A DNA stretch of 50,194 bases from Chthoniobacterales bacterium (GCA_013812515.1 JACCTI010000005.1:1-50194); one strand, 5' to 3'; shown: positions 3,746-19,335, numbered from the stretch's first letter. Notes: generated by a model not told the origin, from the sequence alone. Numbers and translations are program-made.

Positions 3746-3912
3746 TGTCATCCCGAGCCGCGAAACGGCGAGGGACCTCACAATCGGAGTCAAGACGAAC
3801 TGTTCAACCCCGCACGTGGGCCACTCAGCTCAGGCTCTCTCGCGTGACACGGCCGGGGGGAAATTGGGCGACCGGGACGTCGTTGGACGCGCTTCGGCGG
3901 CTCGGAATGACA
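3746..3912. repeat. MITE-like 167-bp element with terminal inverted repeats TGTCATCCCGAG / CTCGGAATGACA
   Basis: The termini at 3746-3757 and 3901-3912 are near-perfect reverse complements. Internal blocks (CGGCGAGGGACCTC, GCGTGACAC, CGCGCTTCG) recur in a second copy at 40138-40261. Lies between convergent genes. Confidence 0.5.
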
Positions 3913-3918
3913 GGCGTC

Positions 3919-4605
3919 CTACCGTTCCGCGGCCACGCGGAAAAATGTCGCCAGGATTCGTGTTCCGGCGACGAAAGTGCCACGCAACGTCCCGGAGACC
4001 TTTGACTCTCCGCCGGTGCGGCAGCGATGGTTCACCGGCACTTCAAGAATACGCAGACCAGCCCGGGCGGCGCGCATCTGCATCTCGAGATTCCAGCCGT
4101 AGGTCTGTTCCCTCATTCCCAGGCGGTCAAGTGCGTCGCGCCGGATCGCGCGGAACGGACACATGTCCGTATACTTCACGCCGTAAAGCGGGCGGATCAG
4201 CCAGCCGGCGAAGTACCCGGCGAACACTTGCTGCGCGTTCATGCTCCCTTTTTCGCGTTCGCCACGTGTGCGCGAACCGATGGCGAAATCCTGCTTCCCC
4301 TCGACGATCGGCTGCAGCAGCCGATCCATCAGCTCCGGGCAATCGCTCCCGTCCCCATCGAGGAAGACAACGATCTCGCAATGGGGTGAAAGCGCGTGAA
4401 TCCCTGCCGCGCACGCGCGCCCGTAACCTCGTGGAGCCTCCACCACGCGCGCTCCCGCTTCGCGGGCGCGCGCGGCTGTGCCATCCGTGCTGCCGTTATC
4501 GACTACGATCACCTCCGAGGGCAACCCCGTTGCCAGACAGCCGCGCACCACATCTCCGATTGGTTCCTCTTCGTCCAGGGCTGGGATAACGACGCAGACG
4601 TTCAT
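3919..4605 (-). CDS. glycosyltransferase family 2 (DPM1-like)
   Basis: MNVCVVIPALDEE...VIVVDNGSTDGT...FLDGDGSD...YGWNLEM motifs. Start set at the ATG at 4605; the 47 upstream codons of the long ORF look non-coding. Confidence 0.85.
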   Translation of the reverse strand: MNVCVVIPALDEEEPIGDVVRGCLATGLPSEVIVVDNGSTDGTAARAREAGARVVEAPRGYGRACAAGIHALSPHCEIVVFLDGDGSDCPELMDRLLQPIVEGKQDFAIGSRTRGEREKGSMNAQQVFAGYFAGWLIRPLYGVKYTDMCPFRAIRRDALDRLGMREQTYGWNLEMQMRAARAGLRILEVPVNHRCRTGGESKVSGTLRGTFVAGTRILATFFRVAAER

Positions 4606-6969: not shown

Positions 6970-7089
6970 GTTGAGCGAAGAGTAGCGGAGTCGAGCCGCC
7001 TCACAAGGAGCGGCGACGCTCTTCTCGCGGTGACTGATGGCTAATCTTCGGCGACAACCGTGTCGCCGCTCCACTCGACGTGCGAGCCG

Positions 7090-14187: not shown

Positions 14188-16416
14188 GTGAAACCGAATT
14201 TCGCTCGCGTCATTATCGATCGCGCGATTCATCGCGAGCTCGATTACGCCATTCCGCACGAGTTCGCGGGCCGGATCGACGTCGGATGGCGCGTGCGCGT
14301 GCCGTTTCGCGAGAAAGCCGCGCTTGCGACAGTTATTGCCATTCTGGCGGAAACCGACGCATCCGGCATTCGGCCGATTGAGGCGGTCGTCGGCGACGGC
14401 GCGGCTTTAAGTCCCAAGCTGCTCGAACTCGCGCGATGGATGAGCGCATATTACTGCTGTTCGATCGAGACGGTAATGCGGAGCCTGCTGCCGCAGGTGA
14501 TTCGGCGCGCGGAAGTGAGCTGGAAGAAGCAGCTCTTCGTTCATCGCATGCGAGAGGTGCCGCCGGACGCGGCAGAGAAGCTGCGGAAGCGCGCGCCGCG
14601 GCAAGCCGAGTTGCTGGACGCGGTCAGCCAACTCACTGCGCCGATCGCGGCGGCCGATCTTCTGCGGCAAACGTCGCTCGATAACCAGACGCTCCGTGCG
14701 CTCGCCAGACGTGGATATGTTGAACTGCGCGCAGCGGCGATGCCACGCGATCCGCACGCCGACGAGCAGTTCGTTGCCACCACCAACCTGTGCTTGAACG
14801 CCGAACAGTCTGCCGCGCTAACGGCGATCGAGCAGTCGTTAGGCAATCCGTCCAATGCCCGACCGATCCTGCTTCATGGCGTGACTGGCAGTGGCAAGAC
14901 AGAGATCTACTTGCAGGCGATTCGTTCCGCGCTGGCCCGAGGCGGGACGGCCATCGTGCTCGTGCCGGAAATCTCGCTCACGCCCCAAACCGTGGAGCGC
15001 TTTAAGAGCCGTTTCGCGGAGGGGGCCGACATGGTTGCCGTGCTGCACAGTCGGCTCTCGGAAGGCGAACGGCACGACGAATGGCATAAAATTCAGGCTG
15101 GCCGTGCGCGCATCGTGATCGGCGCCAGGAGCGCCATCTTCGCGCCGTTGGAAAATCTTGGGCTCATCGTGGTGGATGAAGAACACGAGACTTCCTACAA
15201 GCAGGAAGAAGCGCCGCGCTATCAGGCGCGGGATGTGGCCGTGGTGCGCGGCAAGCTGGAGAATTGCGTCGTTCTTCTCGGCACCGCGACGCCTTCGCTG
15301 GAAAGCTACTACAACGCCACCCGTGGCAAGTATCAGCTCCTGAAGCTAACCCTGCGCGTGGACGACAACCAGATGCCGTTAATCCGCATCGTCGATTTAA
15401 GAGAGGAGAAGCGGAAAGCGAAGTCCCTCACGATCATTGGCGAAAAATTGCACAGCGCGATCATTGCCCGACTGGAGAAACGCGAGCAGACCATCCTCTT
15501 CTTGAACCGCCGTGGCTTCTCCACCTCGTTGCTTTGCAGCGCCTGCGGCGAAGCGCGCGATTGCCCAAACTGCAGTGTGGCGCTCACGTTCCATCGTACG
15601 GCTTCGCGCTTGAGCTGCCATTTGTGCGGACACACTGCGGCGGTGCCGAAGAAGTGTCCGGCGTGCGGAGAAGACGCGCTTATTTATTCGGGCTTCGGCA
15701 CGGAGAAAGTCGAAGCTCACGTCCAGCAGCTCTTCCCGAAATCTGTCGTCCGCCGGATGGATGCGGATTCGATGACGCGCAAAGATGCATATCGCGAGAC
15801 GCTACGCGCCTTTCGCGCGGGCAAGATCGACCTTCTCGTCGGCACCCAGATGATCGCGAAAGGCCTGCACTTCCCGAACGTGACCCTGGTCGGAATCATC
15901 AACGCTGATCTCGCGTTGCACCTCCCGGATTTTCGCGCGGGTGAGCGCACCTTTCAGCTTCTGACGCAGGTCGCCGGTCGCGCTGGTCGCGGCGAAACTC
16001 CAGGCGAAGTGTTCGTGCAAACCTTCACGCCCTTCAGCCCGTCCATTCAGTTTGCGCGTCACCACGATTTCGTCGGCTACTTCGACCAGGAGCTGGAGTT
16101 TCGAGAACGCTGCGAGTTCCCGCCCTTCACCCATGCGGTGCTGATCACGGTGCGATCCGCGCACGAGGCGCGCGCCAGCTTCTCTGCCGAAACTCTCGCG
16201 CGCCGGCTGAAGGAAGCGCTCCCGGACGAGTTCATTCTCAGTCCACCTTCACCTGCGCCGTTGGAAAAACTGCAGGGGCAGCTCCGTTTTCACATCCTCA
16301 TTCGCGGCGAAGCGATCGTGCGCCTGAGCCGGCTCGTTCGCGAGACGCTCGACAAGCTACCTTTTCCCGAGGACGTGCTCGCCTCGGTGGATGTTGATCC
16401 ATATCAACTGCTCTAA
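14188..16416 (+). CDS. priA: primosomal replication restart helicase PriA
   Basis: 742 aa with GTG start. Walker A GVTGSGKTE, DEEH box, Cys-rich zinc insert (CSACGEARDCPNCSVALTFH...CHLCGH...CPACG), GTQMIAKGLHFPNV. Confidence 0.95.
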   Translation: MKPNFARVIIDRAIHRELDYAIPHEFAGRIDVGWRVRVPFREKAALATVIAILAETDASGIRPIEAVVGDGAALSPKLLELARWMSAYYCCSIETVMRSLLPQVIRRAEVSWKKQLFVHRMREVPPDAAEKLRKRAPRQAELLDAVSQLTAPIAAADLLRQTSLDNQTLRALARRGYVELRAAAMPRDPHADEQFVATTNLCLNAEQSAALTAIEQSLGNPSNARPILLHGVTGSGKTEIYLQAIRSALARGGTAIVLVPEISLTPQTVERFKSRFAEGADMVAVLHSRLSEGERHDEWHKIQAGRARIVIGARSAIFAPLENLGLIVVDEEHETSYKQEEAPRYQARDVAVVRGKLENCVVLLGTATPSLESYYNATRGKYQLLKLTLRVDDNQMPLIRIVDLREEKRKAKSLTIIGEKLHSAIIARLEKREQTILFLNRRGFSTSLLCSACGEARDCPNCSVALTFHRTASRLSCHLCGHTAAVPKKCPACGEDALIYSGFGTEKVEAHVQQLFPKSVVRRMDADSMTRKDAYRETLRAFRAGKIDLLVGTQMIAKGLHFPNVTLVGIINADLALHLPDFRAGERTFQLLTQVAGRAGRGETPGEVFVQTFTPFSPSIQFARHHDFVGYFDQELEFRERCEFPPFTHAVLITVRSAHEARASFSAETLARRLKEALPDEFILSPPSPAPLEKLQGQLRFHILIRGEAIVRLSRLVRETLDKLPFPEDVLASVDVDPYQLL
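16307..16416 (+). repeat. direct repeat copy 1: the last 36 codons plus stop of priA
   Basis: 110 nt, about 85% identical to 17985-18094. Nearly all differences are synonymous third-position changes. Confidence 0.85.
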
Positions 16417-16668
16417 GGGTGGCTTTTTCCCTTCGCCGGGTCCTAGCAGGCAGCCCAAACGGCCGCAAACTATGGCGTGAAGAAGGTTTGGCCGGGCTTC
16501 ATTTCCTGCGTGCTTGCGGCGGGGACGTAACTCAACAGTCGGCGAACTGTGTTGAGTCTCGCTTCTATCTCTGGACTAATGGCGGAAGTGGTAGCGGAGG
16601 TGTTGCAAAAATGTCTTGATATTGCTCATGGCGCCGGTGCTCTATGCTCGTTGGGATACCCCCTTTTT

Positions 16669-17217
16669 ATGAAAAGATTGAAATTCTTTGCCGCAATTGC
16701 TGTCGTCCTCGCAGGATCCACCAGCGCGGTGAAAGCACATTTGGTAGACGCAGGCGGCCTCTTCTCGCCCCCAGGAAGTCAGTTATTAGATCCAGCTGTC
16801 AGAGCGGCCGCGCTGGAAAGTCAATTCCACACTGGCCCACTTACCTTCCTCGGGAGGTATGTTCATGACCGAACGGGCGCGGTGACATTCGTGCCTGGCG
16901 CGATCAGCGATCCATCCAAACTGAGCTTTACGCACACGGAATTCCTGACCGGTTTGCTGTCGTGGGACCTTGCCGGTACCGGCTTTCAAAACAAGTGGGG
17001 CGTCACGCTGTTTTCTGGTGACGACTATGCATTTAATGAAGCCTACCGAGTCACCCGCGACGAGTTCCTTAACTCGCTGGGCCCGCAGCTGATGTTCGGA
17101 ACGCCGATAGATATTTTTGGCACCGCCAGTGGGGTTCCCGAGGCGGGGTCCACCGCGCTGCTTCTCGGTATTACAGGCGTGGGTTTCGGCCTATTGCGTC
17201 GTTTCCGAGCGCACTGA
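16669..17217 (+). CDS. secreted protein with VPDSG-CTERM-type (PEP-CTERM-like) C-terminal sorting signal
   Basis: Signal peptide MKRLKFFAAIAVVLAGSTSAVKA. C-terminus VPEAGSTALLLGITGVGFGLLRRFRAH (motif, TM helix, basic tail). Confidence 0.75.
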   Translation: MKRLKFFAAIAVVLAGSTSAVKAHLVDAGGLFSPPGSQLLDPAVRAAALESQFHTGPLTFLGRYVHDRTGAVTFVPGAISDPSKLSFTHTEFLTGLLSWDLAGTGFQNKWGVTLFSGDDYAFNEAYRVTRDEFLNSLGPQLMFGTPIDIFGTASGVPEAGSTALLLGITGVGFGLLRRFRAH

Positions 17218-17382
17218 TCTACTCGCGAATGCCCGCGCATGCAAGGCCTACGTTTCCGATTGGTCTGTGCCTCGCTGATGTGAGGCTAAATCCGCTGGAG
17301 GAACTGGTAGCGGAGGTGTCGATGTCTTGACAGTTGCTAGGCTGTCGCCGGCGGTTCTATGCTTCTCAAGCGTCTCAATCTT

Positions 17383-17921
17383 ATGAAAACATTAAAATTT
17401 GTCTGCCCAATGGTTGTCGCCTTCGCAGGACTTACAAGTTCGGTGAACGCGGATCGATATTTGCGGGGCAAATATTCCCTGGGATCCAGCTGACCAAGCG
17501 GCGGGTGCTGGAGGAGCAGTTCCACACTGGTCCACTTACCTTCCTTGGTCTGTATGGTCATGACCCAGAAACGGGCGCTGTGATATTCCTGCCTGGCGCG
17601 ATCAGCGATCCAGCCAGACTGAGCTTTACGCCAACGGATCGCCTGACCGGCCTGGTATCTTGGGATCTCATCGGCACCGGTTTTCAAAATAGATTCGTCA
17701 CGGCGGACGTATTTGAGGACGACTTTGACGTTGTTAACGTCTTCCGCGTCACTCAGGACGAGTTTCTTAACTCGCGCGGCGCAGCCGCCGTCCGGAATCG
17801 ATGGAGTGCTGATCTACTTTTCGGGACCCCCAGCAGAGTGCCCGACACAGGGTCTACGGCGGTGCTGCTCGGTAGCACACTCGTTGGTTTCGGGCTAATG
17901 CACCGTTTCCTCGCACACTGA
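17383..17921 (+). pseudogene. decayed tandem paralogue of the VPDSG-CTERM protein (at least two frame changes between signal peptide and mature domain)
   Basis: The signal peptide MKTLKFVCPMVVAFAGLTSSVNA is in frame 1 and stops at 17491. A DPA remnant (17483) is in frame 2. The mature domain (EEQFHTGPLTFLG...RVPDTGSTAVLLGSTLVGFGLMHRFLAH) is in frame 3. Confidence 0.65.
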
Positions 17922-17984
17922 CTTCCCGCTTCCGGCGGGCGATGCCGCTTGAATCATGCCGCGCTATGGGCTGTGTCGGACGAC

Positions 17985-18094
17985 GCGAAGCGATCGTGCG
18001 CCTGAGCCGACTCGTTCGCGAGACACTCGACAAGCTACCGCTGCCCGAAGACGTGCTCGCATCTGTTGATGTGGACCCTTACCAGCTCTTGTAG
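17985..18094 (+). pseudogene. orphan copy of the priA 3' end (direct repeat copy 2)
   Basis: Encodes EAIVRLSRLVRETLDKLPLPEDVLASVDVDPYQLL*. This differs from the PriA C-terminus by one residue (F to L) despite about 15 nucleotide differences. Confidence 0.8.
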
Positions 18095-18276
18095 GTAGCG
18101 CGACACTCTTGTCGCCGAGAAGAGGAGAGCAATCAGGGCAACAGTTCTCACGCGGTCGGTAAGCAGGTGTTGAACTATCGCTATGGATCAACCGGAGGAC
18201 GGAGTTCCGTCCCGAGTTCGCCAGCGCTTTGCTTTCGCTGCTGATACGCTAGCATAAGCCCGCCCGCTGACCTGCC

Positions 18277-19335
18277 ATGACCTTCCGGAAAACTCTGCTG
18301 TTGGCGGCTTTCGTGATTCTAGCTGGCATCACGTTGCTGCATAGCGCGTTAAATCTGCACGTTTTCGATGCTCGGCTCAAAACCGGGGCCGGCGGGCGAG
18401 ACAAATTTCGCGTGGGTTTTTTGCCGGTAACGTGCCATCTCACCTGCCCCGTCACGGACTTCATCAATAAGCAGCTCGTCGGCGCGAGCACGTTCGATCC
18501 GATCCGTTTTCAAGGCTGGCCGGAACTGAAGGAAGCGTATCTCTCGGGCTACTCGCCGGCGACGTTCATCCTCGCGCCGATGGCGATCGCGCTTCGCGAG
18601 CAAGGCGTGCCGATTAAGATTGTGTATCTAGGGCACCGTGAAGGCGGCGACGTCATGGTGCATAAAGAGTCGCAGATCTTCCGCACAGAAGATCTCAAAG
18701 GAAAAACCGTGGCGGTGCCGGGCCGCTACGCAAATCACCGCCTCATTCTCTACCGGGAGCTCAAGAAAGCGGGCATGCAGCTGAGCGACATCAAGCTTGT
18801 CGAAATGCCGCCGCCCGATATGCCGGCCGCGCTGTATTCACGCTCGGTCGATGCGATCACGTCCGGCGAGCCGTTCATGGGACAAAGCGAGCTGGATGGC
18901 TACGGCCGCGCGCTTTACCGCGTCAAGGATGTGTGGCCCGGTTTCATTTCGTGCGTGCTCGCCGTCCATGAAGACGTAATCAAAAGCCGTCGCGCGGAAG
19001 TGCAGGGGCTGGTTGACGGCATCGCGAAAAGTGGAAAATGGCTCGACACGAAAATGGAGAACCGCATGGCCGCGGCACAGTTTGTGAGCACGCTTTACTA
19101 CAATCAGAACCCGCGATTACTCAGCTACGTGCTCAGCAAACCACCCGATCGCGTGAAGTATAGCCAGTTAAAACCGACGCGGCCGAACTTCGAGGAAATC
19201 GAAATTCTGGCAAAGGAAGCGGGCATTCTGAAAGGCACGGCGCACTTTGAGGATTACATCGACGACACATTCGCACCCGATGACAACGTCGTGGTCGCCC
19301 ACGCTTACCCTGCCCCGCCCCGTGAGCGCGAATGA
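18277..19335 (+). CDS. ABC transporter substrate-binding protein, NitT/TauT (NMT1-like) family
   Basis: N-terminal anchor, then FRVGFLPVTCHL...GGDVMVHKES...LKGKTVAVPGRYANH, typical of nitrate/sulfonate/bicarbonate binders. Confidence 0.85.
   Translation: MTFRKTLLLAAFVILAGITLLHSALNLHVFDARLKTGAGGRDKFRVGFLPVTCHLTCPVTDFINKQLVGASTFDPIRFQGWPELKEAYLSGYSPATFILAPMAIALREQGVPIKIVYLGHREGGDVMVHKESQIFRTEDLKGKTVAVPGRYANHRLILYRELKKAGMQLSDIKLVEMPPPDMPAALYSRSVDAITSGEPFMGQSELDGYGRALYRVKDVWPGFISCVLAVHEDVIKSRRAEVQGLVDGIAKSGKWLDTKMENRMAAAQFVSTLYYNQNPRLLSYVLSKPPDRVKYSQLKPTRPNFEEIEILAKEAGILKGTAHFEDYIDDTFAPDDNVVVAHAYPAPPRERE

Follow-up and report, generated by a model that had tools for sequence, protein, structure and literature searches.

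The replication-restart gene priA in a 50,194-nt contig of a Chthoniobacterales bacterium (GCA_013812515.1, JACCTI010000005.1:1-50194; this whole stretch is called the window here, with positions counted from its first letter) is followed by an insert and then by a second, diverged copy of its own 3' end. We find that this site varies among strains of a species of soil Chthoniobacterales, and that the window carries the rarer of its two alleles, the one with the insertion. Sequence comparison shows that the insertion replaced the end of priA by the silently diverged end of a related lineage, added two genes for VPDSG-like proteins behind it, and left the native end stranded downstream as a relic. 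In our view a one-step event of additive or 'displacement' recombination, of the type called homology-facilitated illegitimate recombination (HFIR), best explains this allele, although we hold this with a confidence just above even, the mechanism being read from one mosaic pattern.

An insertion polymorphism at the 3' end of priA

The priA gene (14188–16416, + strand) encodes an intact protein of 742 aa that matches the PriA equivalog NF004066 of NCBIfam over its full length (838.9 bits; cut-off 813) and TIGR00595 with a score of 635 (cut-off 230); the PriA domains are also present in Pfam searches. An original prediction, made by a model from the sequence alone, had noted that the last 110 nt of the gene recur downstream with about 85% identity and a single F-to-L change. 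Repeat search and direct alignment agree, pairing 16307–16416 (copy 1, + strand, stop codon TAA) with 17985–18094 (copy 2, + strand, stop codon TAG) at an offset of 1678 nt and with 92 of 110 positions identical (86% over the first 103 nt). The repeat begins at its left edge with an exact 25-nt run (16307–16331 = 17985–18009), and base-by-base alignment finds no similarity beyond either edge, as had also been predicted. Within the 50-kb window, the sole other diverged direct repeat is formed by the two VPDSG-like paralogues of the insert. The lower GC content ascribed to the insert is found as well, at 52–57% over 16350–17700 compared with 60–64% in priA.

The differences between the copies are of a very particular kind. 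Sixteen of the 18 fall in codon position 3, two in position 1 and none in position 2; counted by codon, there are 14 synonymous changes in sense codons, one non-synonymous change (TTT to CTG, F to L) and the change of stop codon from TAA to TAG. Both ends consequently encode the same 36-aa peptide except for the F/L residue. In a simulation of random substitution, one or fewer non-synonymous codons were obtained in none of 20,000 trials.

The original prediction had expected related genomes to hold empty sites, and ten public assemblies of the window's own species (L081–L090) do, with priA (742 aa) followed after 182 nt by ssuA, no insert, and an identical SsuA encoded. Logan contigs likewise skip directly from 16308 to 17987 (1678 nt), with 23 nt common to both sides of the joint. 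Skip contigs outweigh insert contigs in run X4 (depth 10.1 versus 3.5) and are seen in X3 too, and in run X1 the insert has a depth of ~4–7 against ~58–83 for its flanks. This disparity in X1 means that the insert is a minority allele and is absent elsewhere in the dominant genome. Insertion and empty alleles co-occur in the same samples, in many soils.

The insertion allele itself is well supported. Its right junction (17984/17985) is spanned by independent contigs from three studies (17519–18016 in X1, 17857–18016 in X2 and 17928–18016 in X5), and an X2 contig (16272–17292) runs from priA through copy 1 into the insert. A second assembly, L096, contains the priA end, copy 1 and the insert, and is 99.93% identical to the window over 16219–17709. 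The structure is a real insertion polymorphism; an assembly chimera and a scaffolding artefact are excluded.

Comparison with the empty-site alleles also indicates which copy is foreign, a question the prediction had posed; the answer is copy 1. All ten alleles are identical to copy 2 at 108 of 108 positions (17987–18094) and differ from it at position 17986, whereas they match copy 1 at 90 of 108. Because of this match, copy 2 is the displaced native priA end, with 17987–18094 derived from the host. Copy 1 differs at 18 of these 108 positions, nearly always synonymously, from copy 2 as well as from the empty-site alleles, and is the functional, imported 3' end. The surrogate end of the prediction is supported by these results: the insertion provides it, priA stays intact, and the native end lies displaced downstream. 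The relic lies downstream of the imported end and is untranslated. Because it is undecayed and still identical to the native allele, the event is recent.

The import reaches beyond the repeat. Over the downstream 2.4 kb the window and the empty-site alleles show one or two differences, and the flanks are otherwise ~99.7% identical. To the left, the window is set apart from every one of the ten alleles at 16243, 16245, 16282, 16302 and 16308, after which the alleles lack 16309–17986. Five differences therefore lie in the 66 nt directly left of the repeat versus ~4 in the remaining ~3.6 kb (binomial p = 2e-7), and L096 has four of the five insertion-type bases at 16243–16308. The resulting priA is a mosaic that resembles the empty-site alleles up to 16242, bar sites that vary among those alleles, and is foreign from 16243. 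The imported DNA therefore begins no later than 16243, which places its left end 64 nt or more outside the repeat. Its minimum extent is 16243–17986 (+ strand), which is absent from the empty-site alleles and takes in the foreign priA 3' end and the cargo. At least the last 174 nt of priA are foreign in this allele, and the host lost at least 66 nt of priA and gained at least 1744 nt. The right-hand joint probably lies somewhere inside a 23-nt identical block common to copy 1 (16309–16331, + strand), copy 2 (17987–18009) and the empty-site allele. As a separate observation, priA in the window encodes Leu (CTC) at 16282, a private change of this contig's allele; Phe is encoded there in L096, in every empty-site allele and in related species.

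Our comparison set for the wider group comprises 80 related Chthoniobacterales/Udaeobacter-type metagenome-assembled genomes (MAGs), one per species. In the last 174 nt of priA the insertion and empty-site alleles differ at 23 positions, and between either of these two ends and any of the 80 representatives there are at least 30 differences. Because no representative is closer than the two ends are to each other, the donor is an unsampled sister lineage, closely related to the host but distinct from it. This accounts for the synonymous-only divergence: before they were brought together, each copy served as the end of a working gene in a separate lineage. The prediction that both copies had evolved under coding constraint in different lineages is thereby confirmed.

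A further trace of the donor lies behind the stop codon of copy 1. There, at 16465–16518 (+ strand), the insert holds a scrap of ~50 nt from a foreign gene resembling ssuA, which covers SsuA residues ~212–229 (..YGVKKVWPGFISCVLA). The core of this scrap (16475–16517) is 81% identical to the ssuA gene of the window (18920–18962) and 88% identical to that of L059. Over its 18 codons there are 9 synonymous and 3 non-synonymous differences. Because the codon differences are mostly synonymous, we take the scrap to be ex-coding DNA from the priA–ssuA locus of another lineage.

Candidate routes of import

We propose the following sequence of steps. Linear DNA of a related lineage would have paired homologously with the host within the conserved priA gene, with the left crossover upstream of 16243. 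The heterologous far end of the incoming DNA would have rejoined host sequence in the 3' end of priA, either at the block 16309–16331/17987–18009 or within it. The incoming DNA supplied its own silently diverged priA end, the ssuA scrap and the two VPDSG-like genes, one of them already frameshifted, while the last 108 nt of the host's priA were not removed and are stranded downstream. No element-encoded recombinase would be needed for such an event, which would have taken place at the border of a conserved gene and a variable region.

HFIR has been described as additive integration in transformation or conjugation (de Vries & Wackernagel 2002; Prudhomme et al. 2002; Meier & Wackernagel 2003, as relayed by PMC5361080; PMC3240628). 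The window shares with it the anchoring of one foreign end by homology in a conserved gene and the apparent joining of the other without extended homology, the loss of tens of recipient bases for a gain of 1–2 kb of foreign DNA, and the lack of a recombinase gene. The mosaic pattern points to a homologous crossover at the left joint. At the right joint, the flank of the insert has no similarity to the recipient but abuts the 23-nt block, which is common to the donor's own priA end. There are also two differences. HFIR is known mainly from laboratory selections, whereas here it would be deduced from a polymorphism that occurs naturally in a soil bacterium not in culture; and the usual microhomology is 3–10 nt, whereas the joint in the window coincides with a 23-nt identity.

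Several points weigh against this account. Host sequence resumes precisely where the longest identical block (23 nt) begins, and just ~9% of random joint positions precede 23 or more identical bases. The two bases before the block (GC) match copy 1 and not the empty-site allele. In this the right edge resembles a random illegitimate joint less than it does a crossover of two sequences that were both priA-like, either in a circle or in a donor that was already duplicated. Moreover, in the window and in the three related species with duplicated priA ends (see below), the joints all lie within the last 90–170 nt of priA, a clustering that is not an obvious outcome of purely random illegitimate joining. 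DNA uptake by natural competence is putative in this organism. Finally, the donor lineage was not found, and any microhomology of donor sequence past 17986 at the joint is hypothetical.

The original prediction had favored a site-specific integrating element that carries a surrogate 3' end for its target gene. Clean integration at an attachment (att) site is disfavored here for three reasons. First, the five foreign bases at 16243–16308 stand left of the repeat, where a crossover in an att core would leave host sequence. Second, the ssuA scrap from a relative represents chromosomal context and not the backbone of an element. Third, no recombinase, hairpin ends, link to a phage or plasmid, circle junction or further copies were found. 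As the prediction had itself observed, there is no integrase or other recombinase open reading frame (ORF) in 16417–17984, where the only ORFs are the two VPDSG-like genes, and a tblastn search with the IntI-type tyrosine recombinase of a related genome (L007) gives no match in the 50-kb window. Rfam recognizes no family in the insert, its ends fold into no stable structure, and a scan for promoters and terminators gives nothing distinctive. Searches of viral contigs, plasmids and phages return no match to the insert. In the JGI metagenome contigs the right end of the insert was not found, and a protein-profile scan for the cargo family was likewise empty; exact-product look-ups for the window PriA and the 182-aa VPDSG-like protein 1 (VPDSG1) also gave no match. 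Logan contigs contain no circle junction (joints that 'go back'), which at their low read depth is weak evidence of absence.

Another candidate is a decayed island. Here a larger element with an integrase and a surrogate priA end would have crossed over at or left of 16243. A second event, a deletion, would have trimmed attR from the left down to 17985–18094 and carried off the integrase along with most of the element. The models are e14 and phage 21, which integrate in icd (Hill et al. 1989, Wang et al. 1997, as cited in PMC12803456), and, according to the references given there, integration of elements within this protein-coding gene is well documented. Like these elements and the P4-like tRNA islands, the window has a replacement 3' end that keeps the gene intact, the native end at the far junction and silent changes between the two. 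Flanking repeats and an empty attB are both present, the order of surrogate and displaced native ends is the classic attL/attR layout, the insert has a lower GC content, an identical block of 23–25 nt stands at the edge of the repeat, and priA-end duplications recur in related species. By contrast, those elements encode an integrase and leave the host sequence left of the crossover untouched, whereas in the window no integrase was found in the insert, none like the L007 IntI occurs in the 50 kb, and the foreign tract extends at least 64 nt past the repeat, so that the sequence next to the repeat on the gene side is not unchanged host DNA. A recurring element is missing too: no intact version was found, the five homologues of the cargo lying in short unrelated contexts and the JGI, viral, plasmid and phage collections yielding none, and the contigs hold no circle junction. 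When the window, L007 and L033 are compared, their surrogate ends prove unlike, with no common element family evident, the ssuA scrap beside copy 1 points to a chromosomal source, and two events are required in place of one. Taking these points together, we consider a decayed island unlikely, though worth bearing in mind.

A two-step history is, we think, a little less probable again. In this scheme the duplication is older, arose in another lineage and was moved in by double homologous recombination, with crossovers in 16198–16242 and 17987–18009. Such a transfer would account both for the foreign bases left of the repeat and for the GC plus identical block with which copy 2 begins, and it fits flanks that are otherwise ~99.7% identical to the empty-site alleles. 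The co-occurrence of the two alleles in many soils is likewise expected of a segment exchanged by recombination. However, the right crossover must fall in the first ~23 nt of homology, since copy 2 has none of the donor differences in 108 nt, and no donor with the structure was found. In addition, the origin of the duplication is merely pushed back one step.

Two further readings are very improbable. The first is a tandem duplication of the priA end in situ, followed by divergence and later insertion of the VPDSG-like genes. The geometry is that of a direct repeat, and the repeats in L013 and L033 are head-to-tail with intergenic DNA included. A non-coding copy should gain mostly non-synonymous changes, however, and there is one among the 15 differing sense codons (simulation p < 5e-5). 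Furthermore, copy 2 equals the single copy of the empty-site strains and copy 1 is 17% different, the opposite of what is expected if copy 1 were the conserved original. Both findings contradict this reading. The second reading would explain the synonymous-only pattern by selection on copy 2 as a functional ORF of 50 codons (17942–18094) encoding a PriA C-terminal mini-protein. An ATG-started ORF is present, and a similar one is called in L007/L094. Yet selection need not be invoked for a copy 2 that simply equals the native allele; the mini-protein has no family or structure support, and the L013 copy has indels. Least credible of all is a metagenomic chimera, in which assembly would have strung together the priA ends of two strains. 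The window is a MAG-type contig and the alleles share samples, but independent Logan contigs from three runs and three studies span 17984/17985, the X2 contig (16272–17292) passes from priA through copy 1 into the insert, and the separate assembly L096 carries the priA end, copy 1 and the insert.

Known displacement systems and the priA border in relatives

We place the window insertion among the known integrase-free forms of additive or displacement recombination. Besides HFIR itself, the closest parallels are the Rhs, contact-dependent inhibition (CDI) and type VI secretion system (T6SS) effector loci, for which 3'-end displacement, 'orphan' ends and HFIR as the proposed mechanism have been described (PMC5361080, PMC3240628). 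There, as in the window, an incoming module supplies a new 3' end and the old end persists downstream as an orphan. In those loci, however, the ends are different toxins with their own immunity genes, and their diversity is selected, whereas in the window both ends specify the same PriA peptide, with one amino acid difference, and unrelated genes follow the stop codon; distinct C-termini are not seen.

A second parallel is 'insertion with long target duplication', whose mechanism is unknown and whose cargo consists of restriction-modification genes (Nobusato et al. 2000; Furuta et al. 2010, PMC2853133). It too involves a small integrase-free block between direct repeats of >30 bp that align to a single-copy empty target, often the 3' end of a gene. 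With a 1.68-kb insert, 110-nt repeats and empty sites in L081–L090, the window lies within the size and repeat limits of Furuta et al. 2010 (<20 kb, no mobility genes, repeats >30 bp). In the published cases, however, each of the two repeats nearly equals the target (for example, 45/46 and 417/423), whereas in the window this holds for the downstream repeat (108/108) but not for its upstream counterpart, which is a foreign allele (90/108). Three other mechanisms were considered and set aside. There are no attC-like palindromes in the window insert that would mark an integron cassette, and an IntI-like gene occurs only in L007. No repetitive extragenic palindromic (REP) hairpins are found at the junctions, as an event mediated by REP elements and RAYT would leave. 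Finally, a shufflon-like switch of C-termini does not fit ends that both encode the same peptide.

Around priA in the 80 related species, the upstream neighbor slt is conserved, and 33 different first gene families lie downstream in 75 loci. A second diverged priA end is present in three of these species. In L007 the duplication covers 161 nt with 21 differences, all in synonymous codons. In L033 there are 11 differences in the 90 nt through the stop codon, ten of them silent (the stop change included) and one L to I, and the L013 duplication is ~90% identical, with indels. The repeat units of L013 and L033 pass the stop codon into intergenic DNA and stand head-to-tail, at 244 and 326 nt, respectively. 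The L033 structure is found again in three other assemblies, and the L007 junction in another contig. Lineages related to L007 that have an empty priA–merR junction exist, at 8–12% divergence; the relatives of L007 and L033 are too distant to show which copy is the native one. Across ~0.97 Mb of these loci, no comparable gene-end duplication occurs at any other gene.

In window coordinates, the left edges of the four duplications lie at ~16250, 16256, 16307 and 16328. Because these edges differ and the surrogate ends are unlike, the four duplications appear to be independent events and not the work of one element family. The priA border is a recurrent rearrangement site. A bolder proposal, that it is a recurrent landing site of recombinase-free, homology-guided gene gain in soil Verrucomicrobia (four of 81 species sampled), is one that we put forward tentatively and regard as rather doubtful. 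Under it, a relative's DNA would pair with the conserved gene, bring in a silently recoded replacement end together with anything located behind that end, and leave the former end stranded downstream. If such gain were a regular process and not four accidents, orphan ends with synonymous-only divergence would be a general footprint by which additive recombination could be counted in uncultured bacteria, and small accessory cassettes could spread without any mobility gene.

More broadly, the site offers a natural before-and-after pair, in which the empty allele, the filled allele and the relic co-occur in the same soils. The end of an essential gene can evidently be overwritten by the DNA of a relative without harm and with new genes added behind it. 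There is also a caution for annotation: a silently diverged duplication of a gene end is usually read as an att scar, yet here it can arise without a detectable mobile element. Such footprints may be a rare means to observe and count recombination-driven gene gain in uncultured, slow-growing soil Verrucomicrobia such as the relatives of Udaeobacter.

The priA loci of relatives show other features of note. In L007 (1–1650), a tyrosine recombinase resembling integron integrases, with IntI-type N- and C-terminal halves, stands just upstream of priA in place of slt. This gene is apparently split by a small GIY-YIG-type ORF (..YVYALRSLTDNRFYVGLTNDL..), and Pfam Phage_integrase is matched at its end. 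The 540-nt insert between the priA ends of L007 (3873–4411) has no convincing ORF and contains multi-copy repeats, with Logan depths of 250–730 at 3870–3983 and up to 550 at 4269–4439, compared with ~27 in the flanks. An inverted repeat of ~30 nt (GTTCCCTCGTTCCCAAGTTGCACTTGGGAAC...) abuts its copy 2. The repeats look REP-like or like miniature inverted-repeat transposable elements (MITEs). In L033 (3849–4390), each tandem unit behind priA has a self-complementary element of ~190 nt, a long hairpin, that is also present downstream of priA in two other species (L024, 9203–9403; L028, 8533–8734). Two more species have direct repeats just after the priA stop codon, in L025 (8257–8932) of 99 nt with 81% identity and 577 nt apart, and in L026 (8251–8515) as a 126-nt tandem at 97%; we take these as another sign of an unstable priA border. 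A truncated ssuA remnant stands behind priA in L058 (9272–9490; 55% over ~73 aa) and is comparable to the scrap in the window.

Cargo genes and native neighbors

The first cargo gene (16669–17217, + strand) is an intact ORF for a secreted protein of 182 aa with a PEP-CTERM/VPDSG-like C-terminal anchor. The second (17385–17921, + strand) is a paralogue of the first, with 73% DNA identity, and is frameshifted near 17455–17495. Because its signal peptide and body are in different frames, it is likely a pseudogene. L096 has the same sequence of this second gene up to 17709. Both genes terminate in VPxxGST, a hydrophobic stretch and a basic tail, and their C-terminal motifs in the cargo alignment are VPEAGSTALLLG...RRFRAH and VPDTGSTAVLLG...HRFLAH. 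A 24-nt block (TGGCGGAAGTGGTAGCGGAGGTGT, 92% identical between its copies) precedes each gene, at 16580–16603 and 17296–17319, which shows that the tandem gene duplication took in the upstream leader.

The original prediction had described the content of the insert as only two tandem VPDSG-CTERM genes. Two related genes are indeed there, but the second is frameshifted, the family label stays below threshold and the ssuA scrap is present as well. The VPDSG-CTERM models reach sub-threshold scores with the second gene alone (PF18205, 23.5 versus 25; TIGR03778, 17.6 versus 22), and the first matches no Pfam or NCBIfam family at cut-off and shows no VPDSG-CTERM match. Among 5.8 billion proteins, the cargo family has five homologues, all in short unrelated contexts. 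None of the five is beside priA or an integrase. The cargo represents a very rare family of secreted proteins, and its gain has no evident phenotype.

Downstream of copy 2, the native spacer between priA and ssuA (18095–18276, + strand) measures 182 nt, with the spacing and sequence seen in L081–L090. It leads into the resident ssuA-like gene for an ABC substrate-binding protein (18277–19335, + strand; Pfam NMT1_2, TIGR01728), whose product is identical in the ten assemblies. Permease and ATPase genes come after it. The ssuA operon adjoins priA in many relatives and is the ancestral neighbor of priA. At 18092–18118, GTAG directly after the native stop codon is followed by a short palindrome, GCGACA-CTCT-TGTCGC, which has a 19-nt inverted look-alike at 7048–7066 (a weak match, E ~1) and may be a REP-type hairpin.

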